A stretch of DNA of 57,286 bases from an uncultured Gammaproteobacteria bacterium (lineage in GTDB: Bacteria; Patescibacteriota; Patescibacteriia; Magasanikbacterales; UBA922), in assembly GCA_964374115.1 (NCBI GenBank), contig CAYJXK010000002.1, positions 1 through 57,286 on the forward strand. Direction: 5' to 3'. Of the stretch, positions 3,202 through 42,710 are shown one piece after another (position 1 is the stretch's first letter; every line of letters begins with the position of its first letter). A program made the position numbers and the translations under genes. Below the pieces are notes generated by a model, which worked only from the letters and a program-made list of their open reading frames with translations, ran no database searches and was not told the origin of the DNA.

Positions 3202-4440
3202 ATGAAAACAAGACAATATGTCTCCACAGCATTTCGAGGCCTTCGAGTGAATACGGGCCGTTCGATTCTCACCATCCTTGGTATTGTGATTGGCATTACC
3301 GCGATTATTCTTGTCATGGCTGTCGGCAAAGGCGCCGAAGAACTGATCTTGAACCAAATTAGAGGACTCGGCGCTGAAACTATCTTTGTCGAACCTGGCC
3401 GAGAACCTGAAGGGCCGTCGAATTTCGCGGAAGTGTTTACCGATTCACTTACGTCTCGCGATCTCGAATCGCTCCTCAATCCGATCAATGTCCGTGGTAT
3501 TAAAGAAATAAGCCCCAATGTCATTCAAGTCGTACCCGTGACATTTCGAGAAGAGACAATACGGACGAATGTCCTCGGCGCGGCGTCAAGTATTGAAACC
3601 ATCATGGAGATTACTCCAGAGTTTGGCACTTTTTTTAATAAAGATGATGTGCGGGAAAAAGCAGCCGTCGCAGTGCTTGGGGCTGAAGTAAAAAAGAAAC
3701 TGTTTGGCGAATCTGAAGCGATGGGTTCACATATAAAAATTCGATCAAAAACATTTCGAGTCGTCGGCGTGCTTCCCAAAAAAGGCCAGGTAGCGTTTTT
3801 TCCGGTGGACGATACGGTGTTTATTCCCTATACCACGGCTCAGCAGTATCTCCTTGGCATTGATTATTTTCATACCATGATGATCCGTGCGGAAAATGAA
3901 ACAGTGGTTCCTCGCGTCGTGCATGATGTGATATTGACACTCCGAGAACAGCATGGGATTCTGGACCCGGACAAAGATGACTTTCATGTGATAACACAGG
4001 AAGACATTGTGAAGCGAGTGGGTTTTATCACAGGTATCCTCACCATTCTTCTCGTTTCTGTTGCAGGAATTTCACTCCTTGTTGGTGGAGTCGGCATTAT
4101 GAACATCATGCTTGTATCCGTCACAGAGCGGACTCGCGAGATTGGACTCCGCAAAGCCGTTGGCGCCACCAATCGGGATATTCTTTCCCAATTTTTATTT
4201 GAAGCAGTTCTTCTTACAAGTATTGGCGGCATGGCGGGTATTTTCTGTGGCGCGTTATTTTCGTTTGCCACTGTATTTATTCTTTCTCGTGTTGTTTCCG
4301 GAGGGTGGATGTTTCACTTTCCACTCTCCGCTACGTTCATCGGGCTTATTGTTTCCACAGCCACCGGTCTTGTCTTTGGGCTGTATCCTGCTCGTCAAGC
4401 ATCGCGCAAACATCCGATTGAGGCGTTGCGATACGAATGA
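3202..4440 (+). CDS. ABC transporter permease, MacB/FtsX family
   Basis: N-terminal TM, a large extracytoplasmic domain and a C-terminal FtsX-like 3-TM bundle. Adjacent to the ATPase. Confidence 0.9.
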   Translation: MKTRQYVSTAFRGLRVNTGRSILTILGIVIGITAIILVMAVGKGAEELILNQIRGLGAETIFVEPGREPEGPSNFAEVFTDSLTSRDLESLLNPINVRGIKEISPNVIQVVPVTFREETIRTNVLGAASSIETIMEITPEFGTFFNKDDVREKAAVAVLGAEVKKKLFGESEAMGSHIKIRSKTFRVVGVLPKKGQVAFFPVDDTVFIPYTTAQQYLLGIDYFHTMMIRAENETVVPRVVHDVILTLREQHGILDPDKDDFHVITQEDIVKRVGFITGILTILLVSVAGISLLVGGVGIMNIMLVSVTERTREIGLRKAVGATNRDILSQFLFEAVLLTSIGGMAGIFCGALFSFATVFILSRVVSGGWMFHFPLSATFIGLIVSTATGLVFGLYPARQASRKHPIEALRYE

Positions 4441-4606
4441 ACTCATATCGATTTTTTTTCCTCTCACGCCATCCCATCACTTTTTTTTGCCTCCAAAACA
4501 CGCACGCGCAAAACTCGAACAGCATCATAGTCACCCAGAACGCTCTCTACACGCCTGTTTTGCCCCTGAGAATTGGAGGCACAAAAAAAAGGAATCGTGA
4601 CGATGC
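4439..4606 (+). repeat. Family B element, divergent long-form copy lacking one terminus
   Basis: GAACTCATATCGATTTTTTTTCCTCTCACGCCATCCCATCACTTTTTTTTGCCTCCAAAAC matches the reverse complement of 19011..19077. An internal partner arm, GGAGGCACAAAAAAAAGGAATCGTGACGATGC, is present. The element starts inside the stop codon of the permease gene. Confidence 0.65.
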
Positions 4607-4743
4607 TTCATACAGCAGATATCCTTGACATGATAAGGAAAAGTGAGGTGGCCAGGCAACATCCCAGTAGGATCAGACCATCTCATCTTTGCATTTCTCA
4701 CAAAGTCATGTAGCATAAACGCAACGATACGTTTATTTTCAGT

Positions 4744-4931
4744 AGGACGTACGCGTTTGCCATCGGCGTTCACCTCTCTTTTTCTCGCTGAGGAAACTCG
4801 CGTCCTTCTGAGGATCGGTGATACGCCCTGCGACCGCACACGTCCGGGAACGGGCGTATCACCTCGCTCACACAGTCCTCACGAGAAAAAGAGAGGTGAA
4901 CGCCTCTTTGAGAGGCAAACGCGTATGTCCT
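4744..4931 (+). repeat. Family C palindromic element, long form (~188 bp)
   Basis: Terminal inverted repeats AGGACGTACGCGTTTGCC / GGCAAACGCGTATGTCCT. The inner arms are GGCGTTCACCTCTCTTTTTCTCG / CGAGAAAAAGAGAGGTGAACGCC. A short derivative lies at 47457..47512. Confidence 0.8.
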
Positions 4932-4935
4932 ACGT

Positions 4936-6066
4936 ATGAAACAAAAGCCAAAGCAGAAAGTTCTCGTTGCCCTGTCCGGCGGTGTTGATTCATCTGTGGC
5001 CGCCGCTTTGCTCGTGGAAAAAGGATATGATGTGGTGGGAGCGTTTATGGTGCAATATGACGACAGTTCAGAGAGAGGAAAAAGATCATGTTGGCCAAAC
5101 GAGTATAGGGATGCCCTGCGTGTTGCCGCGCATCTTGGCATTCCATTGTTGAAATTTGATTTTACCAAAGCATATTCGAATCATGTCCTTGACTATCTGT
5201 ATCGGGAATATCAGGCAGGAAGGACGCCAAATCCTGATGTGTTGTGCAATACGTTTATTAAGTTTGGCGTATGGCTTGAAAAAGCAAAAGCCTTAGGTTT
5301 CTATTATTTGGCGACAGGACATTATGCGAGAATCAAGAAAACAATCCCTTATTTTTTTCACCTTCTGCAAGCCAAAGATACAAATAAAGATCAGACGTAT
5401 TTTTTGCATCAACTGAGTCAGAATCAACTTTCTCATGTCTTATTTCCTATCGGCGAGTATACAAAACCAGAAGTCCGGGCTCTCGCTCGAACATTTGGAT
5501 TGCCAACCGCGGGAAAAGAAGAAAGTATGGGGATTTGTTTTGTGGGAGAAGTATCAATGAAGGAATTTTTGAAGAAAAAAATCAAGGAGAAGCGTGGAAA
5601 TATTGTGACGTCATCTGGGCAGATCATTGGGAAGCATGATGGTTTGGCGTTTTATACGATTGGACAGAGGCACTTTGGAGTTCAGAGTTCGGCGTTCGGA
5701 GTTCAGAGCAAAGACAATCCTCCATTATTTGTGGCTGATAAACGAAGAAGGACAAACGAACTCGTTGTCGGCTTTGAGAATGATCCGTTGTTGTATAAAA
5801 AAGAAATCACCGTGACCGATGTTCATTGGGTGAGAGGTGGACAGGAGTCGCGGTTTCCATTAAAATGTGAAGTGCGACTGCGGCATCGACAGCCACTTCA
5901 AAAGTCTCAAGTCAAAAGTCTCAAGTCTCCGCCAAAGGCGGATCCGCGTCGGGCGAAAAAAGTCATCATTGTTGCATTTGATCATCCGCAACGCGCCGTG
6001 ACCCCGGGACAGTTCGCGGTATTTTATAAAAAAGGTGAATGTTTGGGGGGAGGAGTGATTGAGTGA
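4936..6066 (+). CDS. mnmA: tRNA 2-thiouridine(34) synthase MnmA
   Basis: PP-loop SGGVDSS, the NPDxxCN motif, and the C-terminal GQFAVFY...CLGGGVI. Confidence 0.95.
   Translation: MKQKPKQKVLVALSGGVDSSVAAALLVEKGYDVVGAFMVQYDDSSERGKRSCWPNEYRDALRVAAHLGIPLLKFDFTKAYSNHVLDYLYREYQAGRTPNPDVLCNTFIKFGVWLEKAKALGFYYLATGHYARIKKTIPYFFHLLQAKDTNKDQTYFLHQLSQNQLSHVLFPIGEYTKPEVRALARTFGLPTAGKEESMGICFVGEVSMKEFLKKKIKEKRGNIVTSSGQIIGKHDGLAFYTIGQRHFGVQSSAFGVQSKDNPPLFVADKRRRTNELVVGFENDPLLYKKEITVTDVHWVRGGQESRFPLKCEVRLRHRQPLQKSQVKSLKSPPKADPRRAKKVIIVAFDHPQRAVTPGQFAVFYKKGECLGGGVIE
5678..5709 (+). repeat. Heptanucleotide tandem array inside mnmA (GAGTTCA|GAGTTCG|GCGTTCG|GAGTTCA|GAGC)
   Basis: The 7-bp period is read directly from the sequence. 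It is translated as FGVQSSAFGVQS. Confidence 0.8.
5902..5941 (+). repeat. Heptanucleotide array (AAGTCTC|AAGTCAA|AAGTCTC|AAGTCTC) plus the palindrome CCGCCAAAGGCGG, inside mnmA
   Basis: Four 7-bp units at 5902-5929 are followed by a 13-bp perfect palindrome at 5929-5941. Translated as KSQVKSLKSPPKAD. Confidence 0.85.
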
Positions 6067-6069
6067 ATT

Positions 6070-7980
6070 ATGATTACCGGCGACATTCGACAAAAATATC
6101 TTGATTTTTTTCAAACGAAAGGATACGCCATTGTACCCTCTGCTTCCCTGTTGCCAGAACATGATGCGACAACACTCTTTACCGGATCCGGCATGCAGCC
6201 CATGGTGCCGTATCTTCTCGGTCAAAAACATCCACTCGGGACCAACATTGCAAATTCGCAAAAATGTTTCCGTGCTCAGGATATGGATGAGGTGGGGGAT
6301 AATCGGCACACAACATTTTTTGAGATGCTTGGTAATTGGTCACTCGGGGATTATTTCAAAAAAGAACAGATCCTATGGATTTTTGAGTTTATCACAAAAG
6401 AACTCGGGCTTGATTCAAATCGATTATATGTCACGTGTTTTCGAGGGAAGGAAGAGATTGGCATTCCAAAAGATGAGGAATCAGCAAGATTGTGGCAGGA
6501 TCTTTTTCAGAAAGTCGGAGTATCAAATGGCATCCAAGATAATTCTCAGCGAGACGGCATGAATGGGGACGCTCGTATTTTCTATTATGGAGCCGAGAAA
6601 AATTGGTGGAGCCGAGCTGGCGTGCCAGAGCATATGCCGGTCGGCGAACCTGGTGGAACAGACACAGAAATGTTTTGGGATTTTGGTGAGCATCTTCGAC
6701 TTCATGAACAATCCGTCTGGAAAGATCAGCTCTGTCATGTTAATTGTGATTGCGGTCGATTTTTTGAAATTGGGAATAACGTCTTCATGGAATATGTAAA
6801 GAAAGATCATGGGTTTGAACAATTACCACAAAAGAATGTTGATTTTGGCGGCGGACTCGAGCGTCTAGCGGGAGCGGTAAACGACAACCCGGATGTATTC
6901 ATGATTGATATTTTTCAACCAATGCGACAAACGCTCGAGCGTGTTTCTCATCAATCATATGGCAGTGCTGAAGAGACGGACAAAGCCTTCCGGGTTATTA
7001 TGGATCATTTGCGCGCTGCGACATTCTTGATTGCTGACGGCGCAGTACCTTCTAATAAAGATCAAGGATATTTCACCAGGCGACTCATGCGTCGCTCGAT
7101 TCGTTTTGCCCAAATACTTGGTATTCAAGAGACGTTTTGTTCCGAGATCGCGACCTCTGTTATATCGGCCTATGAATTAGCCTATCCAGAACTGGCCAAA
7201 AAGAAGGACTACGTCATATTGGAAATGGAAAACGAGGAGAAAAAATTCAAGCGTACGCTCCAAGAAGGGATCAAAAAATTTTCGATTTTAAGTTCCGAGT
7301 TTTTAGGCAGTCGTGAGCAAATTTCTGCCAAAGATGCCTTTGATTTATATCAATCATATGGTTTTCCCATCGAGATGACCGAAGAGTTGGCAAAAGAACG
7401 TGGTTTGGCGGTGGACAGAGAAGGATTTGATACAGAGTTAAAAAAACATCAAGAACTTTCTCGCTCAGGTTCAGAACAAAAATTCAAAGGTGGGCTTTCG
7501 GATCATTCCGAAATGAGTGTCAAATATCATACAGCAACGCATTTGTTGCACGTCACTCTCAAACGCGTGCTCGGCGACCATGTGGAACAAAAGGGGAGTA
7601 ATATCACGCCCGAGCGATTGCGGTTTGATTTTTCTCATCCAGCAAAGATGACAGATGGAGAGATCAAAGAAGTTGAAGACCTCATCAATGCCGCTATTGC
7701 CTGCGACTACCCTGTCTCTTGGCAAGAAATGACAGTGAAGGAAGCTTATGATCAAAAAGTGATTGGCCTTTTTCCAGAGCGATATGAGGAGAAAGTAAAA
7801 GTATACACGGTTGGCGATCCAACCGGCATCGCTCGCGCGAATCCGGAAGACCCCACATTCAGTCGCGAAATTTGTGGGGGGCCTCATGTCGAGCAAACCA
7901 GAGTCTTAGGCCACTTTAAAATTCTCAAAGAAGAAGCGCTCGGCGCCGGGATGAGGAGAATGAAAGCGATATTGGAATAA
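6070..7980 (+). CDS. alaS: Alanine--tRNA ligase, short form (636 aa) lacking the C-terminal C-Ala/DHHA1 domain
   Basis: Class II catalytic core (FTGSGMQP, FFEMLGNWS). Editing-domain zinc motifs HTATHLLH and CGGPHV. The ORF ends right after the editing domain. Confidence 0.92.
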   Translation: MITGDIRQKYLDFFQTKGYAIVPSASLLPEHDATTLFTGSGMQPMVPYLLGQKHPLGTNIANSQKCFRAQDMDEVGDNRHTTFFEMLGNWSLGDYFKKEQILWIFEFITKELGLDSNRLYVTCFRGKEEIGIPKDEESARLWQDLFQKVGVSNGIQDNSQRDGMNGDARIFYYGAEKNWWSRAGVPEHMPVGEPGGTDTEMFWDFGEHLRLHEQSVWKDQLCHVNCDCGRFFEIGNNVFMEYVKKDHGFEQLPQKNVDFGGGLERLAGAVNDNPDVFMIDIFQPMRQTLERVSHQSYGSAEETDKAFRVIMDHLRAATFLIADGAVPSNKDQGYFTRRLMRRSIRFAQILGIQETFCSEIATSVISAYELAYPELAKKKDYVILEMENEEKKFKRTLQEGIKKFSILSSEFLGSREQISAKDAFDLYQSYGFPIEMTEELAKERGLAVDREGFDTELKKHQELSRSGSEQKFKGGLSDHSEMSVKYHTATHLLHVTLKRVLGDHVEQKGSNITPERLRFDFSHPAKMTDGEIKEVEDLINAAIACDYPVSWQEMTVKEAYDQKVIGLFPERYEEKVKVYTVGDPTGIARANPEDPTFSREICGGPHVEQTRVLGHFKILKEEALGAGMRRMKAILE

Positions 7981-19091: not shown

Positions 19092-20951
19092 TTATCTTTT
19101 GAGAACTGCCAAATAGGCCTCTGTCGGAATTTCAACTTTTCCTTTTCCCAGTTCTTTCATCTTTTTCTTTCCTTTTTTTTGTTTTTCCAGCAGTTTTCTT
19201 TTTCTAGTCACGTCTCCGCCATAGAGCTTCGCGGTCACATCTTTCCGAAGAGCCGAGAGCCGTTCTGCCGCGACGATTTTCCCTCCGATGGCTGCTTGAA
19301 TTTTTATTTCAAACTGTTGCCTCGGGAGCGTCTCTTTGAGAGATGCAACAATCTTTTTCCCAACCTGATACGCCTGATCTCGCCAGACCAGGCTTGCGAG
19401 TGATTCTACTGCCTCTTCTGCGATGAGAATATCGAGGCGCACGACGTCGGTATTTCGATATTCCTTTAATTCATAATTCAAAGAAGCATAGCCACTCGTT
19501 GCCGTTTTGAGTTTATCATAAAAGTCTGTGATGAGCGAGGCAAGCGGCATCTCATAGTGGAGGAGCGCGCGTTGATCCGGACCGGTACTCAAATAATCGG
19601 TATTGAGATAGGCGCCTTTTCGATCGGACACAAGAGTCATCACCCCACCCATAAACGTTTTTGGGACGATAATATCCACATTCATCCATGGTTCTTCCAT
19701 ACGTTCGATATGTTCGATTCGAGGTAAATCCTGAGGACTTTTTACCATCATGATGTGTTTATTTGTCCCATACACCCGATAGGCCACACTTGGGACTGTT
19801 GCAATAATATGAATGGCGAATTCTCTTTTGAGTCGCTCTTGGAATATGTCGAGGTGTAGCATGCCTAAGAACCCACAACGAAAACCAAATCCCAGGGCTT
19901 GCGATTGTTCTGGTTCATACGAGAGCGCGGCATCATTGAGTTTCAATTTTTCCATGGCGTCGCGAAGTTCTGTGTATGCGTCTCCCTCTTGGGGGAAAAT
20001 GCCGGCAAACACCATGGGTTTCACTTCTTTATAGCCGGGTAGCGGTTTTCCTTTTTCATCTGCATGCGCCGCGGTTGTGATCGTGTCTCCTACCCGCACT
20101 TCTCCGAGTTCTTTCAGCCCTGTGACGACATATCCAATCTGTCCGTTCTCAAGAGATGGATCAGAGACCAGAGTAGGGGAGTAATGGCCAGTTTCGAGGG
20201 CTTGGCCTCGCGCAAGGGTCCCCATACAAAGAATGTTTTGGCCTTTTTTCAGAGATCCATCCACCACACGAACCGATGCGACCACACCGCGATAATCATC
20301 ATAAAACGAGTCAAAAATAAGAGCACGCAGTGGTTTTGATTGGTTTGGAAGAGGAGATGGAACGCGGGTAATGACCGCCTCAAGGAGTTCAAGAATTCCC
20401 TCCCCTGTTTTTCCAGAGACACGGAGAATTTCTTTTTTTGCGCATCCCAGAAGATGAATGATTTCTTCTTCTGTTTTTTGAATTTCAGCGTTGGGCAGAT
20501 CAATTTTATTCATGACTGGAATGATGGTGAGTCCTTGGTCGATCGCAAGATAGAGATTCGCAATGGTTTGAGCCTGGACACCCTGGCTTGCATCAACCAA
20601 AAGAATAGCACCCTCTACAGCAGCGAGCGATCGTGAGACTTCATAGGTAAAGTCCACGTGTCCGGGTGTATCGATCAAATTGAGTTCATAGTTCACAATT
20701 TCTGCCAGAGGCGAACCCGCCTTTGGCGGGCGCAGTTCGGAGTTTGTTGATTGAAGTTGATAATGCATTCTGACCGGTTGCAACTTAATCGTAATTCCTC
20801 GCTCTTGCTCGAGTTCCATCTGGTCGAGCAGTTGCGCGCGCATATTTCTTTTTTCTATTGTTCCTGTCATTTCAAGAAAGCGATCCGCAAGTGTGGATTT
20901 TCCATGATCAATATGGGCAATGATGCAAAAATTTCGGATGGATTGGTTCAT
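19092..20951 (-). CDS. lepA: Elongation factor 4 (LepA)
   Basis: IRNFCIIAHIDHGKST, DTPGHVDF, NKID and the LepA C-terminal domain. The start was set at MNQSIRNF, which gives an ATGA overlap with the murJ stop. Confidence 0.95.
   Translation of the reverse strand: MNQSIRNFCIIAHIDHGKSTLADRFLEMTGTIEKRNMRAQLLDQMELEQERGITIKLQPVRMHYQLQSTNSELRPPKAGSPLAEIVNYELNLIDTPGHVDFTYEVSRSLAAVEGAILLVDASQGVQAQTIANLYLAIDQGLTIIPVMNKIDLPNAEIQKTEEEIIHLLGCAKKEILRVSGKTGEGILELLEAVITRVPSPLPNQSKPLRALIFDSFYDDYRGVVASVRVVDGSLKKGQNILCMGTLARGQALETGHYSPTLVSDPSLENGQIGYVVTGLKELGEVRVGDTITTAAHADEKGKPLPGYKEVKPMVFAGIFPQEGDAYTELRDAMEKLKLNDAALSYEPEQSQALGFGFRCGFLGMLHLDIFQERLKREFAIHIIATVPSVAYRVYGTNKHIMMVKSPQDLPRIEHIERMEEPWMNVDIIVPKTFMGGVMTLVSDRKGAYLNTDYLSTGPDQRALLHYEMPLASLITDFYDKLKTATSGYASLNYELKEYRNTDVVRLDILIAEEAVESLASLVWRDQAYQVGKKIVASLKETLPRQQFEIKIQAAIGGKIVAAERLSALRKDVTAKLYGGDVTRKRKLLEKQKKGKKKMKELGKGKVEIPTEAYLAVLKR
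20716..20744 (-). repeat. Two heptamers (AACTCCG|AACTGCG) plus the palindrome CCCGCCAAAGGCGGG, inside lepA
   Basis: The coding strand reads AACTCCGAACTGCGCCCGCCAAAGGCGGG, translated as NSELRPPKAG. The palindrome core is the same as at 5929-5941 in mnmA. Confidence 0.7.
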
Positions 20952-22558
20952 AAAATTTCTTCTGGGGCAGACGCGTGAACATCTCGGAGTTTTGTCCATC
21001 GTCTCTTGAGAGACTGCGAGAAATCACGGAGTTCCTGGAGTTGTAAGCAATAGCTTACGATACCATAGACAAAAAGTCCAGAAAGAACTGTCACAGATGT
21101 CTGGGTAAAAACTCCCCAAAGCCGGGTCATGTCTACCAGGCGAGCCAGAGGCTCTTTGAGCAGTTCAATCGTAAGCCCCATTGCGAGGCTCGCGATAGAT
21201 ATTTTGTAGAGAAATGGCACAAGAGTGGCTTCATTCAATGTCCCGAGATATCGTCTGAGGCTCATCCAGAGAAGGGTGAGCTGGACGACCATGGCAAGAG
21301 AATAGGCGAACGCAAGGCCTGCGATCCCGAAATGATCTTTGAGATACCATCCAAGCACAATATTGAGCGCAAAACTTATCGTACTCATAAGAAATGGGAT
21401 GAATGTATTTTCCATAGCATAAAACACTCGCGTGAGAAGGGGGATGAGACATTGAGCAAACAGTGATAATACAAAAAACGCAAGAGTATCCGAGGTTCGA
21501 ATCGTTGCGTCCCAATCAAAGGCCCCACTGCCAAGGAAAATCCGTACGATTCTCGCACGGAGAAGTAAGAGAATAATCATGGCCGGGATAATCAGAAAAA
21601 GAACGGATCGGATCGTCTGAGAGATTGAAATACGCATTTCTTCTACTTTTTTTTCTGCATAGAGCGTGGAGAACAAGGGAAACGCTGCAAGCGCGAATGG
21701 GATCCCAATAATGCCCACAGGCGCGTATTGCAGATTATCAGCAAGATGAAAGACGGTAATACTTCCTTCTCCGATACGGGAAGCAAAAAAAATCATTGCG
21801 AGCCAGTTTAATTGATGCGCAGCGAGTCCGAGAGTCCGTGGGATCATCAGTTTTCCAATCATGCGTACGGATGGATCTTGGTGATTCCAACAAAATCGGA
21901 ATCGGAATCCTTTTTTGAGAAGGGCTGGGATCTGCACGACAAAGTGAAGCGCTGCGCCGATCACCACTCCGAACGCTAATCCAATTTCGCCCCAAAGGGG
22001 ATAGAAAAAGAGCACTCCTACTATAATTCCAAGATTGTAGACAATGGGAGTAATCGCATACGTGACAAAATATCGAAGAGATTGGAGAACGCCACTTGTC
22101 ACACTGCTCAGTCCCAAGAATACGGGACTGAGGAGCATGATCCTGGTGAGCGTGATGGTCCTCTCCTGCAATGCCGCATCAAATCCAGGAACCATGAGGG
22201 GAATAAGGAACGGGATACAAAAAAATAACAGAACAGAAAAAACGAGCAAGATAATAGAGAGAATACTCATGATCTCGCGGGTCAGTTGCCATGCTTGCTC
22301 TTTGTTTTTGGTGTAAAGCGAAGTAAATATAGGGATGAATCCGGCAGACAGCGCGCCAATAACCACAAGATAAAACAAGAAATCTGGAATCCGAAACGCA
22401 GCATAGTAGACATCGAGGGTGGCGCTTGCTCCAAAGACATGCGCAAAAAGGCGATCACGGATAATTCCAATAATACGGCTCAACAAAGACGCTGCCCCAA
22501 GAATGATGGCAGCGCTTGCAATGGTGCTCGTTTGTGTCTGGAACAGACGACGGATCAT
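20948..22558 (-). CDS. murJ: Lipid II flippase MurJ
   Basis: About 536 aa, multi-TM, with a MurJ/MviN N-terminus (SRIIGIIRDRLFAHVFGAS...DVYYAAFRIPD). Confidence 0.92.
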   Translation of the reverse strand: MIRRLFQTQTSTIASAAIILGAASLLSRIIGIIRDRLFAHVFGASATLDVYYAAFRIPDFLFYLVVIGALSAGFIPIFTSLYTKNKEQAWQLTREIMSILSIILLVFSVLLFFCIPFLIPLMVPGFDAALQERTITLTRIMLLSPVFLGLSSVTSGVLQSLRYFVTYAITPIVYNLGIIVGVLFFYPLWGEIGLAFGVVIGAALHFVVQIPALLKKGFRFRFCWNHQDPSVRMIGKLMIPRTLGLAAHQLNWLAMIFFASRIGEGSITVFHLADNLQYAPVGIIGIPFALAAFPLFSTLYAEKKVEEMRISISQTIRSVLFLIIPAMIILLLLRARIVRIFLGSGAFDWDATIRTSDTLAFFVLSLFAQCLIPLLTRVFYAMENTFIPFLMSTISFALNIVLGWYLKDHFGIAGLAFAYSLAMVVQLTLLWMSLRRYLGTLNEATLVPFLYKISIASLAMGLTIELLKEPLARLVDMTRLWGVFTQTSVTVLSGLFVYGIVSYCLQLQELRDFSQSLKRRWTKLRDVHASAPEEIL

Positions 22559-35138: not shown

Positions 35139-36113
35139 TCATCGCGTATCAAGCAAGTTTCGCTCACGGATAAATTTTTTTGTTTCTTCTTTCAGGAATT
35201 CAAAAGAAGATATCACAAAATATCGTTGTTGTAAAAAAGAATAATTGTAGTCAGTATTGATAACCTCTTCGATAGTAAATGGGCGAATATCGGCATCAGC
35301 GCGAAAGGCATTATTCATGTCTTCAATCCCGGCCAGTAATCCAGCGCCAAAGGCCTTGGGATTTCCATGCTCTTCAATCATACCGTATTCCAACGTAAAC
35401 CAGTAGAGCCGTTCTAATTGTTTCAATTCCTCCTCCGAAGCCTCTGTGGCTGCTTGACCAATCAGACGGGTGAATTCAACCAAATCCGCATCGGCAAATG
35501 TGGGCACATGCCCAATAAATTCATGAATCGCGTCTGGTTCTGGGGTGAACGTGGGTCGAGAATGGTGCCGAATGTATTGGGTACATAACATTCGTTTGTT
35601 AGCCAAAGAGATCAAAAAAGATCGACTATCCACCAATCCTTCGATCGGCGCGAGTCGCATGCCATTGAACAATGAAACAGAGTGGCTGAGTTCGCGCATT
35701 TGAGGAATATGATTTTGAGGAATATGCAACTTTTTACGCGCACGCAAATACATGCCACACGCTCGATCCGGATGCAGACTGGACAACACGCCGTTTACTT
35801 CTTTCCAAGTCGCATGTTCCTGCGGTGTGTATTCCAACAGAGGAATCGCATTCGGTTCGCGACGAAATTGTTGAGCCAATCGGGCAATCTGTTCTCGTCG
35901 GGTTCGATATTCCGGATCAGTAGCGCCAGGATGATCGAGATCCAGAATTGCCAAGATTTGCTTTGGTTCTAAGGGTTTCCATTCATTGTTCATATACGGT
36001 AGATCCACCGATGTTTTTTCTCCCCGTGAGGATTGAGAGCCTGTCTCACAAGTCCATATGTATGATTTTCGCGATGAAAGAGACTGGTGAGATAGACTCT
36101 TAGTGAGATTCAT
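35139..36113 (-). CDS. phhA: Phenylalanine-4-hydroxylase (pterin-dependent aromatic amino acid hydroxylase)
   Basis: Iron ligands in PEPDAIHEFIGHVP and YWFTLEYG, plus DLDHPGATDPEYRTRR. The start is uncertain. An alternative ATG at 35993 (MNNEWKP) gives a more typical bacterial length. Confidence 0.88.
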   Translation of the reverse strand: MNLTKSLSHQSLSSRKSYIWTCETGSQSSRGEKTSVDLPYMNNEWKPLEPKQILAILDLDHPGATDPEYRTRREQIARLAQQFRREPNAIPLLEYTPQEHATWKEVNGVLSSLHPDRACGMYLRARKKLHIPQNHIPQMRELSHSVSLFNGMRLAPIEGLVDSRSFLISLANKRMLCTQYIRHHSRPTFTPEPDAIHEFIGHVPTFADADLVEFTRLIGQAATEASEEELKQLERLYWFTLEYGMIEEHGNPKAFGAGLLAGIEDMNNAFRADADIRPFTIEEVINTDYNYSFLQQRYFVISSFEFLKEETKKFIRERNLLDTR

Positions 36114-36296
36114 CCATCTCGGCCAGTCGGCGTGACAAAAAACACCGCCTCACTAGGGCGATGATGGCAAACAACATAATCATCTTTACCCTAGTCGACA
36201 AAGATGTAATAATACACTGAGTGGCTTGAATTGTTCGGATAGGTGAGAGCCATATTTTATAGCATATCATCTCTTCATCAATAGCGCAATGACGAT

Positions 36297-37673
36297 GTGG
36301 AACATTCTTTGTTTCTTCAGCGTGTGCCAGCGCTTCCGGATGAGCCGGGAGTATATTTATTTTACAACAAAAGAAGAGAAATAGTGTATGTGGGCAAGGC
36401 AACATCGCTCAAGAATCGCGTAAGAAGTTATTTCGCTCCACAAGGATCAGCGCGTCCCATCGAGTGGCTTTTCCATGAGGTCGTGGATTTGAAGACTGAA
36501 AAGACAGCATCTGTGCTCGAAGCAATCATTCTCGAATCGATCTACATCAAAAAGTTTCAGCCAGTATACAATGTGATTGGCAAGGATGATAAAAGTTGGA
36601 ATTATCTTGTCATGAGCAATGAGATGTATCCAACACTTCGCGCCATTCGAGAGCATGATCTTGAAGGAAAGTATCGATCTGAGGCTATCGGTTTCACACG
36701 AGAACCATCGGATCGACTCACTGGGGCGATGAAAAAAGATTTTTTATATCTTTTCGGTCCATTTCCTGGGTTGAACGCAAAGGCAACCATGCAAATATTG
36801 CGGCGATTATTTTATTTTTCGACCTGTCAACAAAGACGATCGGGGAAGAAAAATTCCGTTCACACCCGCTCCCTCCACAGGGGATGGCACGGGAGGGGTC
36901 CGTGTTTTTATTACCAAATCAAACAGTGTCTTGGTGTATGCACGGGCGAGATAACACCAAAAGAATATCAACAAAAAGTGATTCGGCCGCTTGTTCTTTT
37001 TTTGAAAGGAAAGAAGATGAGTGTTATTCGGACGCTTGAAAAAGAAATGAAAGTTGCGGTGCGGCGGGAAGATTTCGAAGAGGCGGCGCGTGTTCGTGAT
37101 CAACTGTCTCATTTGGAGCGGATCGAGGATGTCGCGCTCATGAACGCGTCGTTTTTTTCCGACCAATCCGCTTCGGGTGGATCGGGCGGGAGAATGAAAA
37201 AAATAGAAGGGTACGATATCTCAAACCTCGGCTCAACCGGCGCTGTTGGGAGCATGGCGGTATTTGTGTTTGGTGAACCAGACAAAAGCCAATATCGTCG
37301 ATTTCGCATCAAAACAGTAGTGGGCCAAAGCGATGTGGATTGTTTGGAGGAAGTCATCCGAAGACGTTTGAGACATGCTGATTGGCCACTGCCAAATCTT
37401 TTCCTCATTGACGGCGGCAAACCGCAAGTGAATCGAATACAAAAAGTGTTCAAAGAATGCTCGGTGCATATTCCCATCGTCGGGATTGCCAAAGGGCCGG
37501 AACGAAAGCGAAACGATATCTTGATTGCAAATGATTCTTCTTTTGGTTCAAATGATGCCAACAATAGAATCATGATTCGATGGATTCAGAACAACCAAAA
37601 CCTTCTCATTCGAGTTCGAGACGAAGCGCATCGGTTTGCGCTTGTGTATCAGAGGAAGACGAGGCAGTTGTGA
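36297..37673 (+). CDS. uvrC: Excinuclease ABC subunit C
   Basis: GIY-YIG (PGVYLFY...IVYVGKA), a UVR domain (EEAARVRDQL) and the RNase H-like endonuclease domain. GTG start. No C-terminal (HhH)2 domain is apparent. Confidence 0.9.
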   Translation: MEHSLFLQRVPALPDEPGVYLFYNKRREIVYVGKATSLKNRVRSYFAPQGSARPIEWLFHEVVDLKTEKTASVLEAIILESIYIKKFQPVYNVIGKDDKSWNYLVMSNEMYPTLRAIREHDLEGKYRSEAIGFTREPSDRLTGAMKKDFLYLFGPFPGLNAKATMQILRRLFYFSTCQQRRSGKKNSVHTRSLHRGWHGRGPCFYYQIKQCLGVCTGEITPKEYQQKVIRPLVLFLKGKKMSVIRTLEKEMKVAVRREDFEEAARVRDQLSHLERIEDVALMNASFFSDQSASGGSGGRMKKIEGYDISNLGSTGAVGSMAVFVFGEPDKSQYRRFRIKTVVGQSDVDCLEEVIRRRLRHADWPLPNLFLIDGGKPQVNRIQKVFKECSVHIPIVGIAKGPERKRNDILIANDSSFGSNDANNRIMIRWIQNNQNLLIRVRDEAHRFALVYQRKTRQL

Positions 37674-37711
37674 GAGGACACTCTTTGATATATACTTTTT
37701 CATGAAGTCTT

Positions 37712-38662
37712 ATGGATCACATATATCAGATGTTGAAACAATTTGGTCATGTCACACTTCACGAATTCCTTGCCAAGCATACAACATTTAAAATTGGCGG
37801 ACAGGCTGACTATTTTGTGACGGCAAAAAGTACGGATGATTTGATAGAATTGCTCAAATATCTCGATCAAGAAGGCACACCGTATTTTATTTTGGGTGGG
37901 GGAAGTAATGTTTTGGTGAGGGATGATGGATTTGATGGGGTCGTGGTAAAAGTCCGAAGTCAGAAGTCCGAAGTCAGAAGTCCATTTCTTGAAGCCGATG
38001 CAGGGTGTGTTACGGTTGAAATGGCACAACAATCAATCAAAGCAGAGCTGACGGGATTTGAGTGGGGTGTCGGAGTGCCCGGGACGATTGGTGGAGCGGT
38101 GCGAGGCAATGCCGGGGCAATGGATGGAGAGATGAAAGATGTTGTTGAATCAGTTGATGTATATCAAGATGGAGAAGTCGTAACGCTTTCGAATACAGCA
38201 TGCGAGTTTCGTTATCGAGATAGTGTGTTTAAACATGGGGGCGGTGTTGTTTTGAGAGCGAGGTTACGGTTGAGGATAAAAGAAAAAAAAGATGAAGCAG
38301 GCATAAAAAAAGCACTTGAATATCTACAGTATCGCAGTAAAACACAGCCTCAGGGGTGGGCGAATACAGGATGTATTTTTAAAAACAGTCATCAGCTATC
38401 AGCCATCAGCCATCAAATTGAAATGCCAAAAGAATTCATTCAGAAGGGCAAAATTCCTGCGGGATGGTTGGTAGAAAAGGCTGGGATGAAAGGGGCACAA
38501 GTCGGGAACGCAAAGGTGAGCGATGTGCATGGGAATTTTATTGTGAATATGGGTGGAGCAACCGCGGCCGATGTGTCGGCACTTATTGAAAAGGTGAAAG
38601 GGGCAGTGTATACTCGATGTGGGGTAGTGCTAGAAGAAGAAATACAGATTCTTGGAAATTAG
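37712..38662 (+). CDS. murB: UDP-N-acetylenolpyruvoylglucosamine reductase
   Basis: FAD-binding domain (HTTFKIGGQADYF, ILGGGSN) and C-terminal SAGWLVEKAGMKG...HGNFIVN. Confidence 0.94.
   Translation: MDHIYQMLKQFGHVTLHEFLAKHTTFKIGGQADYFVTAKSTDDLIELLKYLDQEGTPYFILGGGSNVLVRDDGFDGVVVKVRSQKSEVRSPFLEADAGCVTVEMAQQSIKAELTGFEWGVGVPGTIGGAVRGNAGAMDGEMKDVVESVDVYQDGEVVTLSNTACEFRYRDSVFKHGGGVVLRARLRLRIKEKKDEAGIKKALEYLQYRSKTQPQGWANTGCIFKNSHQLSAISHQIEMPKEFIQKGKIPAGWLVEKAGMKGAQVGNAKVSDVHGNFIVNMGGATAADVSALIEKVKGAVYTRCGVVLEEEIQILGN
37950..37984 (+). repeat. Five-unit heptanucleotide array inside murB (AAGTCCG|AAGTCAG|AAGTCCG|AAGTCAG|AAGTCCA)
   Basis: Read directly from the sequence. Translated as KVRSQKSEVRSP. 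Confidence 0.85.
38386..38413 (+). repeat. Four-unit heptanucleotide array inside murB (CAGTCAT|CAGCTAT|CAGCCAT|CAGCCAT)
   Basis: Read directly from the sequence. Translated as SHQLSAISHQ. Confidence 0.8.
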
Positions 38663-38677
38663 GTTCATGTTTCAACT

Positions 38678-39022
38678 ATGATCATCACCATCCATGGCAG
38701 TGGCATCGAACTCACGGATGCCCTCAGGCAATACGCGGAGGAAAAAGTGCAAACACTTACCAAACATTTTGATAATATTCAGAAAGCGGAAATAGATATT
38801 GGCCTACGCACGCATCATCATCAAAAAGGAGATATTTATTACGCGGAAGTAAATTTATGTGTTCCGCAGCATGTGCTCCGTGTCGTCAAAGAAGAGGCAG
38901 ACTTGTATAAAGCGATTGACAAGGTGAAAGATCATTTGAAAATGGAATTGGAAAAAATGAAGGGCAAGATGCGGGCGAAGAACAAACGTGTGCTTCGGGA
39001 AAACAAAGAATACCACACATAG
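38678..39022 (+). CDS. hpf: Ribosome hibernation promoting factor (HPF/RaiA, S30AE family), short form
   Basis: MIITIHGSGIELTDALRQYAEEKV...LYKAIDKV is typical of HPF. Confidence 0.88.
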   Translation: MIITIHGSGIELTDALRQYAEEKVQTLTKHFDNIQKAEIDIGLRTHHHQKGDIYYAEVNLCVPQHVLRVVKEEADLYKAIDKVKDHLKMELEKMKGKMRAKNKRVLRENKEYHT

Positions 39023-39109
39023 TCGCATGACGCATGCCATAAATTCACGACGTATCATGAAGATGAAAGGGAAGTCCAGAGACTTCCCTTTGCGTTCCTC
39101 CCATTGTTT

Positions 39110-39283
39110 CTATGGCAGGATCGGACCACGTGGCGTGTTCTGCCGCACATACACGCATGCTTCGCATCGGCATGGTTGTTCTCCGAGTCCGCAATCAGTA
39201 AGGTGGCCGCAGAGCGCGCATGTGTCTTTCCCGACCCCCCCAATGGGCCGAGCACATGCCCGACATGTTTTTTCTTTTTTCAT
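39110..39283 (-). CDS. Cys-rich 57-aa protein (8 Cys; CxxC-x10-CxxC plus CxCxxC)
   Basis: MKKEKTCRACARPIGGVGKDTCALCGHLTDCGLGEQPCRCEACVYVRQNTPRGPILP*. A strong SD (AAGGAG) lies 6 nt upstream and a promoter is present. The segment is G+C-rich. Confidence 0.6.
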   Translation of the reverse strand: MKKEKTCRACARPIGGVGKDTCALCGHLTDCGLGEQPCRCEACVYVRQNTPRGPILP

Positions 39284-39306
39284 GCTAGCTCCTTTTCCCA
39301 GTTTGT

Positions 39307-39336
39307 AGTATAGAGAAAAGGATCTACATTTGTCCA
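39307..39336 (-). promoter_or_regulatory. Promoter candidate TGGACA-18-TATACT for the Cys-rich ORF
   Basis: Minus-strand hexamers at 39331-39336 and 39307-39312. Confidence 0.5.
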
Positions 39337-39410
39337 TTTCTCAGGCGCAGTCTGGACAACAAGGGGGAAAAGATGATATCCTCGCAGACAGGAAAGAGAT
39401 TACATCCATT

Positions 39411-39509
39411 CTCGACCACGCCATATGGTGAGATATGGCCCACAGAGTTGCCGGCAAAGAAAAAGTGACTGAATGGCGCTCGGGAGAGCGCGAGAGACAC
39501 GGAAACTCG
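39411..39509 (+). repeat. Family B element, half copy (core plus one terminus)
   Basis: The reverse complement aligns with 18901..19010 of the long copy, with scattered substitutions. It ends in GGAAACTCGCTATGAGTTC. Confidence 0.8.
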
Positions 39510-39541
39510 CTATGAGTTCGGAATTAGGAATTCACACTCGT

Positions 39542-42427
39542 ATGTCTTGGTACACAAAAATTTTCGGCGATCCATCGAAAAAAGAGTTACAAAAATTGCA
39601 ACCCATCGTAGAAAAAATCAACCATCTTGAGCTTGAATATCAGGCGCTTTCAGATGAGGGATTGCGAGAGAAGACCGATACATTCAAAGTACGGTTGCAA
39701 CAGGGAGAAACCCTCGAGGATCTTATCCCGGAAGCATTCGCGGCAGTCCGCGAAGCATCCAGGCGCACCACAGGCATGCGTCATTTTGATGTCCAGCTTA
39801 TTGGGGGCATGGCTCTGCATCAGAGAAAGATCGCGGAAATGCGAACCGGAGAAGGAAAAACACTGGTTGCCACACTTCCGGCCTATCTCAACGCGCTTGA
39901 GGGAAAAGGGGTGCATATCGTGACCGTCAATGATTACCTCGCTCGCCGTGATGCGGTGTGGATGGGGCAGATTTATGATTTTTTGGGGATGCGTGTGGGT
40001 ATTGTTCAGAATTTGAGGATTTCGTATGTGTACAGTTCAGAATTCAGAGTGCAGAGTGCAGAGGAACAGGAAACATTGAAAGAGGGAAGTGATACAGATA
40101 AAGAACGAGACGAGATGGGTAGTTTCAAAGTAGAGTACGATTATCTACAATCCTGTTCGCGACAAGAGGCGTATCGTTGCGATATTACCTATGGCACGAA
40201 CAATGAATTTGGGTTTGATTATCTTCGCGACAACATGGTGCAAGATGTGTCGGAGATGGTGATGCGGCCTGGTGCGGAAATGCATTACGCCATTGTGGAT
40301 GAAATTGATTCTATTCTCATTGACGAGGCGAGGACTCCCCTTATTATCTCAACGCCAGCAGAAGAGGCAGGAGAGCAATATTATATGTTTGCCCGATTGG
40401 TGCGACAGCTCACAGAGCATGATGATTTCGCGATTGATGAAAAACTGCGGAGTGTCACGCTGACAGAATCAGGGATTGCAAAATTTGAGGAGTGGCTCGG
40501 CGTGGAAAATCTTTACGTCGAAGGCGGCATTCCAATGGTCCATCATATTGAACAGGCGCTCAAAGCCGAGTATCTTTTCAAACGTGATAAAGAATACGTC
40601 GTTGATATGGATGAAATTCTTATCATTGATGAATTTACCGGACGCAAAATGCCAGGGCGCAGATATTCCGAAGGACTGCACCAGGCGATCGAAGCGAAAG
40701 AAGGCGTCACGATCAAGCGCGAGAGCGTCACGCTTGCGACCATTACATTTCAAAATCTCTTCCGCATGTATCGTAAATTATCGGGCATGACTGGGACGGC
40801 AAAAACAGAGGAAGAAGAGTTTTATCGAATTTATGGACTTGAAGTATTTACGATTCCCACAAACAAATCCGATCACAGGTCTGATCACCCGGATCGCATT
40901 TATCGAAGTAACAGCGGCAAATACGCCGCGATCGTAGAAAAGATAAAAGAAGCCCAAACAAAATCGCAGCCACTCCTCATCGGCACCATCTCTGTAGAAA
41001 AAAATGAAGAGCTGAGCGCTTATTTGGATGCGAACGGCATTGCGCATGAAATTTTGAACGCGAAAAATCATGAACGTGAAGGAGAGATTATCGCGCAAGC
41101 CGGTCGGCCCGGCGCGGTGACACTCGCGACCAATATGGCAGGACGTGGTGTGGATATTAAGCTCGGAGGTAGCCCGGTGAATGAGGAAGAGGCAGTACGG
41201 GTCGTTGCCGCAGGCGGGCTTTTTGTACTCGGTACGGAGCGGCATGAGGCACGACGTATCGACAATCAACTTCGAGGGCGCGCGGCTCGTCAGGGCGATC
41301 CGGGTGAAACGCAATTTTTTGTGTCTACTGAAGACGATCTCATGCGTATTTTTGCGGGCGATCGGATGAAAGCGGTGATGACACGGCTCAAGGTTCCAGA
41401 AGACATGCCGATCGAACAGCGCATGATTACTCGCATGCTCGAAAGCGCGCAGAAAAAAGTAGAAGGATTTCATTTTGATTCGCGCAAACACGTGCTCCAG
41501 TACGACGATGTGCTCAATCGTCATCGCCATGTGATCTATACCAAGCGCCGGCAAATTCTTGAAATCGCTGCCAAAGCCGAAGGGGTTCTCGATCCTTTCA
41601 TCCAGCTTGTCACACTCGAAGAAGGCGATGTGCGTTATGATACACTCAAAGACATGATGCTCGAAATGATTGATGGAGAAATTGAGTTTCTGGTGAGTTT
41701 TCACACCATGATGCCCGGAGAAGAATCAGCAGATTTTTTGAGAGAGACAAAAGGATTATGGGATATGGAGGGAATTATAGAAGGAATCAAATCGATATTT
41801 CCAATGAAAAGCGAGGACATAGCGCATCTGCGCGAAACATTTAGACCAGCGGCAATGGGCAACAAAAGCACAATAGAACACAAAGATGCCATGATTCAGT
41901 TTATAGCTCAAAAAGCCCGCGCCGAGTATGCGCTTATTGAAGAAAAGATGCGGACAGTGGGCGATGGGCAAGCGGAAGCTGGTAATCGTCTGATGCAAGG
42001 GGTCGAGCGCAGTGTTCTTATTCGAGCGATTGACACGCTCTGGGTTGAACATTTAGTTTCTGTGGATTATCTGCGCACCGGCATTGGTCTTCGTGGTTAT
42101 GGGCAACGCGATCCACTGATTGAATACAAAAAAGAAGCATATCGTTTATTCCAGGAGTTGCTTGGCAATATTCAAAAAGAAGTGGTGACGTCATTTTTCA
42201 AAATTGGGCTCGGGATTCAAATGGCGCCGCGAATGATCGGCGAATTGGCGTTTGGTCCCTCGATTATGGCAAAAGACAAGATGGTGATGACTGGCGCCAA
42301 AAAATCGGAAGAAGAACATTTGGCTCCATCATCCACTCCTCGGTCAGCAGATGGAAAAAAAGTTGGGCGCAATGATCCGTGTCCGTGTGAAAGCGGCAGA
42401 AAGTACAAAAAGTGTCATGGGAAATAA
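39542..42427 (+). CDS. secA: Preprotein translocase ATPase SecA
   Basis: KIFGDPSKKELQK, MRTGEGKT, DEID/DEAR, and the C-terminal zinc tail CPCESGRKYKKCHG. The start was set at MSWYTKIFG. The upstream part of the ORF runs through a repeat. Confidence 0.96.
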   Translation: MSWYTKIFGDPSKKELQKLQPIVEKINHLELEYQALSDEGLREKTDTFKVRLQQGETLEDLIPEAFAAVREASRRTTGMRHFDVQLIGGMALHQRKIAEMRTGEGKTLVATLPAYLNALEGKGVHIVTVNDYLARRDAVWMGQIYDFLGMRVGIVQNLRISYVYSSEFRVQSAEEQETLKEGSDTDKERDEMGSFKVEYDYLQSCSRQEAYRCDITYGTNNEFGFDYLRDNMVQDVSEMVMRPGAEMHYAIVDEIDSILIDEARTPLIISTPAEEAGEQYYMFARLVRQLTEHDDFAIDEKLRSVTLTESGIAKFEEWLGVENLYVEGGIPMVHHIEQALKAEYLFKRDKEYVVDMDEILIIDEFTGRKMPGRRYSEGLHQAIEAKEGVTIKRESVTLATITFQNLFRMYRKLSGMTGTAKTEEEEFYRIYGLEVFTIPTNKSDHRSDHPDRIYRSNSGKYAAIVEKIKEAQTKSQPLLIGTISVEKNEELSAYLDANGIAHEILNAKNHEREGEIIAQAGRPGAVTLATNMAGRGVDIKLGGSPVNEEEAVRVVAAGGLFVLGTERHEARRIDNQLRGRAARQGDPGETQFFVSTEDDLMRIFAGDRMKAVMTRLKVPEDMPIEQRMITRMLESAQKKVEGFHFDSRKHVLQYDDVLNRHRHVIYTKRRQILEIAAKAEGVLDPFIQLVTLEEGDVRYDTLKDMMLEMIDGEIEFLVSFHTMMPGEESADFLRETKGLWDMEGIIEGIKSIFPMKSEDIAHLRETFRPAAMGNKSTIEHKDAMIQFIAQKARAEYALIEEKMRTVGDGQAEAGNRLMQGVERSVLIRAIDTLWVEHLVSVDYLRTGIGLRGYGQRDPLIEYKKEAYRLFQELLGNIQKEVVTSFFKIGLGIQMAPRMIGELAFGPSIMAKDKMVMTGAKKSEEEHLAPSSTPRSADGKKVGRNDPCPCESGRKYKKCHGK
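40034..40061 (+). repeat. Four-unit heptanucleotide array inside secA (AGTTCAG|AATTCAG|AGTGCAG|AGTGCAG)
   Basis: Read directly from the sequence, with degenerate continuation to about 40075. Translated as SSEFRVQSAEE. Confidence 0.8.
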
Positions 42428-42671: not shown

Positions 42672-42700
42672 TTGACGATTTTCGTCATTGTCTGTAGAAT
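42672..42700 (+). promoter_or_regulatory. Promoter TTGACG-17-TAGAAT immediately upstream of secD
   Basis: Hexamers at 42672-42677 and 42695-42700. The ATG at 42711 is only 10 nt after the -10. Confidence 0.55.
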
Positions 42701-42710
42701 ACGTCCAGCT

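Follow-up and report, generated by a model that had tools for sequence, protein, structure and literature searches.

The question raised by this locus is how tandem arrays of a 7-nt unit come to be translated, in frame, within a housekeeping gene. The gene is mnmA, which encodes a tRNA 2-thiouridine synthase and occupies positions 4936..6066 (plus strand) of contig CAYJXK010000002.1 (assembly GCA_964374115.1); the whole stretch of 57,286 nt that was analysed is referred to here as the window. A sequence-only reading of this DNA had drawn attention to two heptamer arrays in mnmA, one of them fused to a palindrome, and had regarded them as DNA-level repeats that the protein tolerates. We find that translated heptamer arrays are lineage-wide in Magasanikbacteria-like and other Parcubacteria-type bacteria of the Candidate Phyla Radiation (CPR), and that by period, excess and unit number they belong to the class of heptanucleotide simple sequence repeats (SSRs), being neither of the known G-rich family nor of the short tandemly repeated repetitive (STRR) sequences of cyanobacteria. 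Their dense in-frame occurrence, and the presence among them of perfect 14-nt repeats that encode conserved strands of MurB and MnmA, are unexpected.

The 376-aa open reading frame (ORF) at 4936-6066 is identified as MnmA by precomputed Pfam matches (PF03054, PF20259 and PF20258) and by matches to PDB entries 2hma/9hlv (E ~1e-91) and 2der (2e-77), and its AlphaFold (AF2) model has a mean predicted local distance difference test score (pLDDT) of 84.9. Array 1, at 5678..5708 (+), reads GAGTTCA GAGTTCG GCGTTCG GAGTTCA GAG, to which Tandem Repeats Finder (TRF) assigns a period of 7, 4.4 copies and 83% matches, and encodes (F)GVQSSAFGVQS. The left part of array 2, at 5898..5929 (+), encodes QKSQVKSLKS; its four units, AAGTCTC AAGTCAA AAGTCTC AAGTCTC at 5902-5929, are found by TRF as a period of 7 in 4.0 copies, and 5898-5927 as a perfect 14-nt repeat of 2.1 copies. 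Both arrays lie in frame and give the peptides FGVQSSAFGVQS and KSQVKSLKSPPKADP, so that in sequence, frame and translation they are as first described. No complementarity was found between the two mnmA arrays.

The window was scanned at periods 4-15 for arrays with a minimum of 3.5 copies and 80% identity, with TRF run alongside. Four period-7 arrays pass this filter, the array at 5902 entering as a fifth under a looser one, and the remaining periods in this range yield none; 30 dinucleotide shuffles of the window gave on average 0.0 period-7 arrays and none at periods 5-15. The five arrays, three of which had escaped the sequence-only reading, are shared among three genes, two in mnmA, two in murB and one in secA, and have the units GAGTTCA, AAGTCTC, AAGTCAG, CAGCCAT and CAGAGTG. 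The murB gene (37712..38662, +; a 316-aa ORF called as 310 aa from 37730) carries at site A an AAGTCCG/AAGTCAG array of 4.7 copies (37950..37983, +), which is a perfect 14-nt repeat of 2.4 copies and encodes KVRSQKSEVRS, and at site B a CAGCCAT array of 4.3 copies (38386..38415, +), which encodes SHQLSAISHQ in a CPR-specific segment of MurB. In secA (39473..42427, +) the array CAGTTCA GAATTCA GAGTGCA GAGTGCA GAG (40034..40063, +) encodes SSEFRVQSAE and falls in a variable insertion of nucleotide-binding domain 1 (NBD1).

The two mnmA arrays differ in what they do to the protein. Site 1 lies between the motifs YTIGQR and PLFV, where the window protein has 17 residues and the commonest minimal form among orthologues, for example HVGVKTDKNE, has 10; the excess is exactly 7 residues, or 21 nt, or three units. 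The corresponding residues, 241-260, are modelled with low confidence (pLDDT 55-61). A native seed of 1.4 units, CAC TTT G|GAGTTCA|GAG C..., is plausible from the nucleotide sequence, and GAGTTCA GAG plus three units would then reconstruct the present array. We conclude that at site 1 a surface loop has been expanded by 21 nt.

Site 2, between RLRHRQ and PQRA, has 31 residues in the window and 20-21 in most relatives. Removal of nucleotides 5928-5957 shrinks it to 21 residues, PLQKSQVKSLKSKVIIVAFDH, and restores the tract AAGTCTCAAGTCAA AAGTCTCAAGTCAA AAGTCAT, a 14-nt repeat of 2.4 copies that is organised like the first murB array. In the AF2 model the heptamer-encoded QKSQVKS forms a predicted β-strand (residues 322-328) within a block of pLDDT 91, and the ten inserted residues form a loop (pLDDT 59) ahead of strand 344-353. 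The heptamer tract at site 2 is thus length-neutral and structural, and the additional residues come from the inserted 30 nt. The earlier expectation that both sites are short loops therefore holds for site 1, where the loop is enlarged, whereas at site 2 the tract corresponds to a β-strand of normal length. Orthologues that carry the same peptides in non-periodic DNA had been named as evidence against the earlier reading, and locus L163 goes part of the way towards this: its segment PLQKSKVIKSVKSKVVIEFDE, also of 21 residues, matches PLQKSQVKSLKSKVIIVAFDH at 14 of 21 positions, and its DNA repeats AAGTC with looser, mixed spacing.

The murB arrays are length-neutral as well. At site A, KVRSQKSEVRSP, the length of the segment is constant in 30 of 35 orthologues and the window protein is 2 residues shorter there than the Bacillus-type MurB of PDB entry 4pyt; the tract encodes a native β-hairpin stretch, with no change in length relative to orthologues. 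At site B the window has 41 residues and the shortest orthologues 40-42. The SecA site is an NBD1 insertion that is also present in Thermotoga SecA, and here the window protein is 5-8 residues longer than its closest relatives. A strict rule of one native plus three added units, which agrees with MnmA site 1 and approximately with SecA, was rejected for failing at both MurB arrays and at MnmA site 2.

The palindrome next to array 2 proved to be something other than a part of the array. It had been described as 13 bp long and fused to the array; it does adjoin the array, but it measures 15 nt (TCCGCCAAAGGCGGA, 5928-5942, with a 6-bp stem) and is the first half of a 30-nt double-hairpin element, TCCGCCAAAGGCGGA followed by TCCGCGTCGGGCGAA, at 5928..5957. 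The element adds ten codons (the SPPKADPRRAK loop), and the AAGTC array resumes on its 3' side as AAAAGTCA (5958..5965, +), which the reconstruction treats as the right part of array 2, parted by the element from the left. The window has two occurrences of the 13-mer CCGCCAAAGGCGG, one at 5929-5941 and the other on the minus strand within 20713-20730, and an 18-nt pattern allowing up to 3 mismatches has 0.11 matches in shuffled sequence. The second occurrence marks another copy of the 30-nt element, CCCGCCAAAGGCGGG followed by TTCGCCTCTGGCAGA (20701..20730, -), which encodes RPPKAGSPLAE, is preceded by the decayed heptamers AACTCCG AACTGCG, and lies in lepA, the gene for EF4 (19092..20999, -). 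The copy sits in the β-hairpin loop that precedes LNLIDTPGH, which has 44 residues in the window and 23 in the commonest orthologue form. In relatives the same LepA loop carries other in-frame repeats, including a larger element that encodes ...VGRVEESLSN..QKRDSS..ARND. No lepA was found by tblastn in the fetched loci, and the LepA relatives came from a protein search.

A third relative of the element is found at murB site B of L123, a CPR locus whose MurB is 40% identical to that of the window, where TCCGCCAAAGGCGGA TCCGCCTTTGGCGGA forms a perfect 30-nt palindrome translated as SAKGGSAFGG; the mnmA and lepA copies each match it at 25 of 30 positions. When pairs of adjacent 15-nt hairpins were searched for under strict criteria, the CPR loci gave 7 hits, shuffled sequence 0.3 and the outgroup 2; five of the seven (in L011, L089, L101, L123 and L152) have ends of the TCC...GGA type. 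The elements of L101 (TCCACCAAAGGTGGA TCAGCCTCTGGCTGA) and L089 (TCCCGCAGAGCGGGA TCCCGCTCTGCGGGA) differ in their stems by compensating changes and keep the TCC...GGA ends, and an element of the 30-nt type is carried by murB in L101, L123 and L152. Fold energies range from -8.6 to -16.9 kcal/mol, compared with ~0 for single strands of the heptamer arrays. Miniature inverted-repeat transposable elements have terminal inverted repeats and a target-site duplication; here the whole 30 nt is a palindrome, and no target-site duplication is visible at 5928/5957, at 20701/20730 or at 5223/5252 of L123, the boundaries of the element being ambiguous by 2 nt. Small GC-rich hairpins in general were also considered; their excess in the window, about 2-fold at 40 compared with 20 in shuffled sequence, is not convincing, and the specific element alone is significant. 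Because copies occur elsewhere and excision is clean, restoring the orthologue length, we rejected the palindrome as a part of the heptamer array and conclude that the 30-nt element is separate and dispersed, and that its insertion into the AAGTC array made the turn of a β-hairpin longer.

Comparison with other genomes shows how widely the arrays are spread. The comparison drew on 80 loci with MnmA, taken from GTDB genomes, on 80 with MurB, taken from metagenomes, and on a few more from exact-protein look-ups, and the CPR sets, together ~1.45 Mb, were scanned with the copy-number and identity thresholds used for the window. For MnmA, MurB and LepA alike, the best matches bear the name Candidatus Magasanikbacteria or Patescibacteria group, the closest MnmA being 66% identical. 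In Magasanikbacteria-like loci (848 kb) the numbers of arrays at periods 4 to 9 are 10, 1, 4, 25, 5 and 2, with none at periods 10-15; in more distant CPR loci (600 kb, MurB 39-46% identical) they are 12, 0, 3, 17, 2 and 3, with 2 arrays at periods 10-15, both of period 15. An outgroup of 894 kb (Saccharibacteria, Bacillota, Legionella and others) has only 2 period-7 arrays, both in one Thiohalobacter contig. Exact recurrence of 5-mers, a measure free of alignment, follows the same pattern: in the CPR loci distance 7 has 3828 cases and distance 14 has 3283, against ~2400-2550 at distances 10, 11 and 13, and with no excess in the outgroup (996 at distance 7, against ~1150-1250). The predicted genome-wide excess of period 7 is therefore borne out, with respect to shuffles in the window and with respect to other distances and the outgroup in related CPR DNA. 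Window protein clusters have only members from their own sample, with no close strain found, and a search of the CPR loci for pairs of close strains that could reveal the birth of an array gave no informative pairs.

Two observations on the compared records stand apart. The Thiohalobacter contig (L052, 8952-9005) has its two arrays side by side, one of CTTCCAG and one of alternating TTCTGAA/TTCTGTA, and the second carries the complement of the window secA unit CAGAATT. The MnmA proteins of L005-L008, L010, L011, L014-L017, L020, L030 and L079 are 56-64% identical to that of the window and fall among the Magasanikbacteria records, and the titles of these entries, 'uncultured Gammaproteobacteria bacterium', are for that reason probably wrong.

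Distinct differences are seen between arrays inside and outside genes. Arrays of at least 3.5 copies have a density of ~25 per Mb in long open frames (1.41 Mb) and ~157 per Mb outside them (83 kb), some six times higher, although by count ~70% of arrays are inside ORFs. Outside ORFs the copy numbers fall off steadily (11, 5, 5, 4, 1, 1 and 2 arrays in successive classes from 2.5 to 5.5 copies), whereas inside ORFs the corresponding histogram (32, 3, 8, 10, 15, 2, 0, 0 and 1) has a maximum at 4-4.5 units. No such coding peak is seen for periods 5, 6, 8 and 9. A peak at this position fits a frame filter in which a seed of about one unit is extended by three units (or six), that is by 21 nt (or 42 nt), and the single long coding array, of 7.6 copies, is consistent with one plus six units. 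Every array whose unit contains TAA or TAG lies outside ORFs. Of 31 coding arrays, 13 only could be read stop-free in the reverse orientation, which accounts for much of the strand choice. The distribution shows that the arrays are depleted in genes and filtered for reading frame.

The same protein sites are used repeatedly, with different units. Five other loci have arrays at MurB site A, of AAGTTAC (L106, L129), AAAGTTC (L153) or AAATTTC (L161, L104), and site B has ACAACAG in L083 and L089 and CAAAAGC in L107. MnmA site 1 carries AAGTCAA in 4.4 copies in L164, ACAATTA in L006, and AAGTC tracts of mixed 7- and 9-nt spacing in L162 and L165; at MnmA site 2, L164 has four copies of GAATGCA with no gain in length. 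L123 has an AAGTCAG array at the SecA site of the window array; this unit is thus common to window murB and L123 secA, where it gives the same peptide, VRSQKSEVR. Likewise GAGTTCR, the unit of window mnmA, occurs as its complement in window lepA and in an ORF of L112. At MnmA site 2, L003 (10976-11050) and L030 (11027-11101) have in-frame arrays of period 8 (GCACGACA in three copies; CAAAAAAA in four), which indicates that this hot spot is not exclusive to heptamers. Inverted pairs of heptamer arrays, which could form long hairpins, were noted in L097 (952-1049 and 1969-2071, flanking murB on both sides), L123 (15441-15526) and L002 (7192-7266, inside mnmA).

The 42 arrays have 36 different canonical units. 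ACT/AGT is the most enriched trinucleotide, present in 20 of the 42 against 17% expected (p = 4.5e-6; next best p = 1.5e-3). A stop-codon filter was rejected as the cause of this bias, which persists in the stop-free set. Within arrays, the order of variant units is commonly AABB, ABBA or ABAB-A, and two perfect 14-nt arrays of 2.4 copies are among the arrays with such patterns. The murB genes of L083 and L089 are 74% identical in DNA and both have near-perfect arrays at the orthologous site, and in L089 one variant is common to two adjacent units. Such patterns point to copying from unit to unit.

The origin that we consider on balance probable is that the tracts are heptanucleotide SSRs generated by mispairing that is out of register by 7 nt, and then filtered by selection. 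While the DNA is replicated or repaired, one 7-nt unit would pair with its neighbour out of register, through slipped-strand mispairing or template switching, starting from native seeds of the form XYZnnnnXYZ such as GAGTTCAGAG; the conserved motif LQ[KN][AC], encoded by TGCAGAATGC, is a candidate for such a seed. Mispairing would add units and copy variants from one unit to the next. Within genes, the survivors would be those that keep the frame, with about one native and three added units giving 4.x copies, whose unit is stop-free in all three phases and whose peptide fits the local fold, selection removing frameshifts, stop-containing units and misfitting lengths. Most likely the arrays have no function of their own, and are tolerated mutational products that serve as raw material for loops.

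Several observations weigh against this origin. Simple slippage changes length, whereas three of the five window arrays (both in murB and that at MnmA site 2) and several of those in relatives leave the net length as it is; the orthologues compared are only ~60-66% identical in protein. Such arrays would require length-neutral copying or replacement of units. Slippage by itself leaves unexplained the sole preference for period 7, the ACT/AGT bias, and the recurrence of units such as AAGTCAG and GAGTTCR in unrelated genes of distant genomes. With the best MnmA match at 66% identity, neither a birth event nor a length polymorphism can be observed.

The same observations lend some weight to a different origin, in which the tracts are copies of mobile or templated cassettes of ~30 nt, inserted or written over native sequence by some machinery, of which the 30-nt hairpins may be a second output. 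Recurrence of units in unrelated genes and distant genomes, the strong ACT/AGT bias and the replacement of native sequence at constant length in several arrays all speak for it; coding arrays are moreover 28-32 nt in total, close to the length of the hairpin element, and both window copies of that element lie in or beside heptamer tracts. We nevertheless regard cassettes as unlikely. There are 36 different canonical units in the 42 arrays, no shared flanks or target-site duplications are seen, and native 10-nt seeds are present at the sites, while the coding-specific peak, combined with the steady fall-off outside ORFs, is as expected for stepwise growth with a frame filter. A specific form of this idea, which seems to us doubtful, is that a dedicated DNA-level process of Parcubacteria-type CPR bacteria, biased towards RAGTY-containing units, rewrites patches of ~30 nt, also in essential genes, into arrays in a 7-nt register with their length kept, the 30-nt hairpins being a second product of the same machinery. 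If true, it would mean a new templated repair or mini-element system and not ordinary slippage, and a source of structural segments such as the MurB β-hairpin.

That the arrays could be functional nucleic-acid signals under selection, for protein or RNA binding, translation pausing or recoding, is suggested by their recurrence at the same positions in lineages that are 40-65% identical (6 loci for MurB site A, at least 4 for site B, and also in MnmA and SecA). We think this improbable, for the unit at one site differs by lineage (AAGTCAG, AAGTTAC, AAAGTTC or AAATTTC at MurB site A), the array strands have no structure, many orthologues show no periodicity at the array sites, and these sites are variable or tolerant segments of the proteins. 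Selection on the peptides themselves, for example for β-strands rich in Lys, Ser and Val, with DNA periodicity as a by-product, is very improbable. The peptides of murB site A and mnmA site 2 do resemble those of orthologues, and KSEV can be encoded exactly by AAGTCNG repeats, but the 7-aa peptide repeat reaches at most ~1.4 copies, the perfect 14-nt duplications extend to synonymous positions, the density of arrays is some six times as high outside ORFs as inside, and some orthologues (L087, L168) encode similar peptides in weakly periodic DNA. In this respect the original view of a DNA-level and not a protein-level repeat is upheld. Finally, short repeats can in principle confuse assemblers, with nothing specific here to suggest it, and an assembly or sequencing artefact can hardly be the explanation, since the reading frames of conserved genes are intact across the tracts, tracts of ~30 nt are shorter than typical sequencing reads, the same phenomenon is seen in dozens of unrelated assemblies (NCBI, JGI, ENA), and Logan contigs of run ERR3478686, made with a different assembler, reproduce 4904-6345 and 36063-39448 with 0 mismatches, which makes an assembler artefact very unlikely.

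Mispairing of 7-nt units, which we continue to favour, agrees with what has been published on other bacteria. Many bacteria have an over-representation of heptameric SSRs, and polymerase slippage has been put forward as a hypothesis to explain it, both as cited from Mrazek et al. 2007 in PMC4692102. In that paper, Rehm et al. 2015 describe arrays of GGGAATC in Xanthomonas and of GGGGAYT in Nostoc that are G-rich, lie chiefly between genes, tend to have four units and are in some cases arranged as inverted pairs, and report having found no detailed literature on heptameric repeats (PMC4692102). The CPR arrays resemble the bacterial heptameric class in their tandem 7-nt units, in the excess of period 7 over neighbouring periods and shuffles, and in the preference for about four units, and they resemble the Xanthomonas and Nostoc arrays in the occurrence of some inverted pairs (L097, L123, L002) and in a higher density in intergenic DNA. 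They differ in that their units are not G-rich and cannot form G-quadruplexes, that most of them by count are translated in frame in compact housekeeping genes, and that several encode structural strands without change in length; the four-unit peak of the CPR is moreover coding-specific, which fits a frame filter rather than quadruplex formation. No paper on heptamer arrays or mini-palindromes in CPR genomes was found in a literature search of incomplete coverage, so that the supposed novelty stands for the CPR, but not for the general excess of heptameric SSRs in bacteria, which is published (PMC4692102).

The locus can also be compared with other systems. The STRR units of cyanobacteria reportedly include CCCCAGT, TTGGTCA and CAACAGT, and are said to have been described by Mazel et al. 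in 1990; STRR arrays are longer, mostly intergenic, and found in (heterocystous) cyanobacteria. The likeness extends to the period of 7 and to AGT, which is present in two of these three units and is also most enriched here, but unit sequences and taxon differ, and by unit the CPR arrays do not belong to STRR. The small dispersed repeats (SDR) of cyanobacteria, attributed to Elhai et al. 2008, are said to be 20-30 nt long and able to sit inside other repeats. The 30-nt element shares with SDR its very small size, its dispersal and its ability to sit inside other repeats; the taxon differs, and in-frame insertion into coding sequence is not known to be a hallmark of SDR. Contingency-locus SSRs, which underlie phase variation of surface or restriction-modification genes, likewise consist of short tandem units prone to slippage, whereas the hosts here are mnmA, murB and secA, with the arrays in frame at internal loops or strands and with no sign of on/off switching.

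Rickettsia palindromic elements (RPEs), with which the arrays had also been compared, are ~150 bp long, form defined sequence families that each encode a conserved peptide, and have been described in Rickettsia (PMC10969869). The comparison applies to the 30-nt element only, as the arrays are not palindromic, and it concerns behaviour and not family membership. Like RPEs, the element is palindromic and dispersed, lies in frame in unrelated housekeeping genes, and is placed in loops where the fold tolerates it; unlike them, and unrelated to them, it is five times shorter, consists of two 15-nt hairpins, and has only the TCC...GGA ends in common between copies.

Other features of the window are recorded here in their own right. 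Upstream of mnmA, at 4440-4936, ~500 nt have no convincing ORF, which is long for a compact CPR genome, and no Rfam match was found in this interval even at E <= 1; Rfam and tRNA scans also gave nothing relevant. The P1 sub-domains of SecD (42672-44762, +) are separated by inserted peptidyl-prolyl isomerase (rotamase) domains of the PpiC type, a fusion that is also present in the relative L162 (2623-4665). This reduced CPR genome also has, at 35139-36113 (-), a gene for a biopterin-dependent aromatic amino-acid hydroxylase (PF00351, E 4e-76).

For the biology of the CPR, the arrays amount to a natural experiment, in which one mutational product is free outside genes and under a frame-and-fold filter inside them, so that the process becomes measurable; the contrast between coding and non-coding DNA brings the old puzzle of heptamer excess within reach of measurement. 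CPR proteins are well known to vary in length, and repeats at the DNA level, namely heptamer arrays, the 30-nt hairpin element and larger palindromic elements, are a source of part of this variation beside protein-level evolution. They reach not only loops but also some β-strands of housekeeping enzymes, and this bears on alignment and phylogeny as well as on gene calling and structure prediction in the CPR, a large uncultured radiation.

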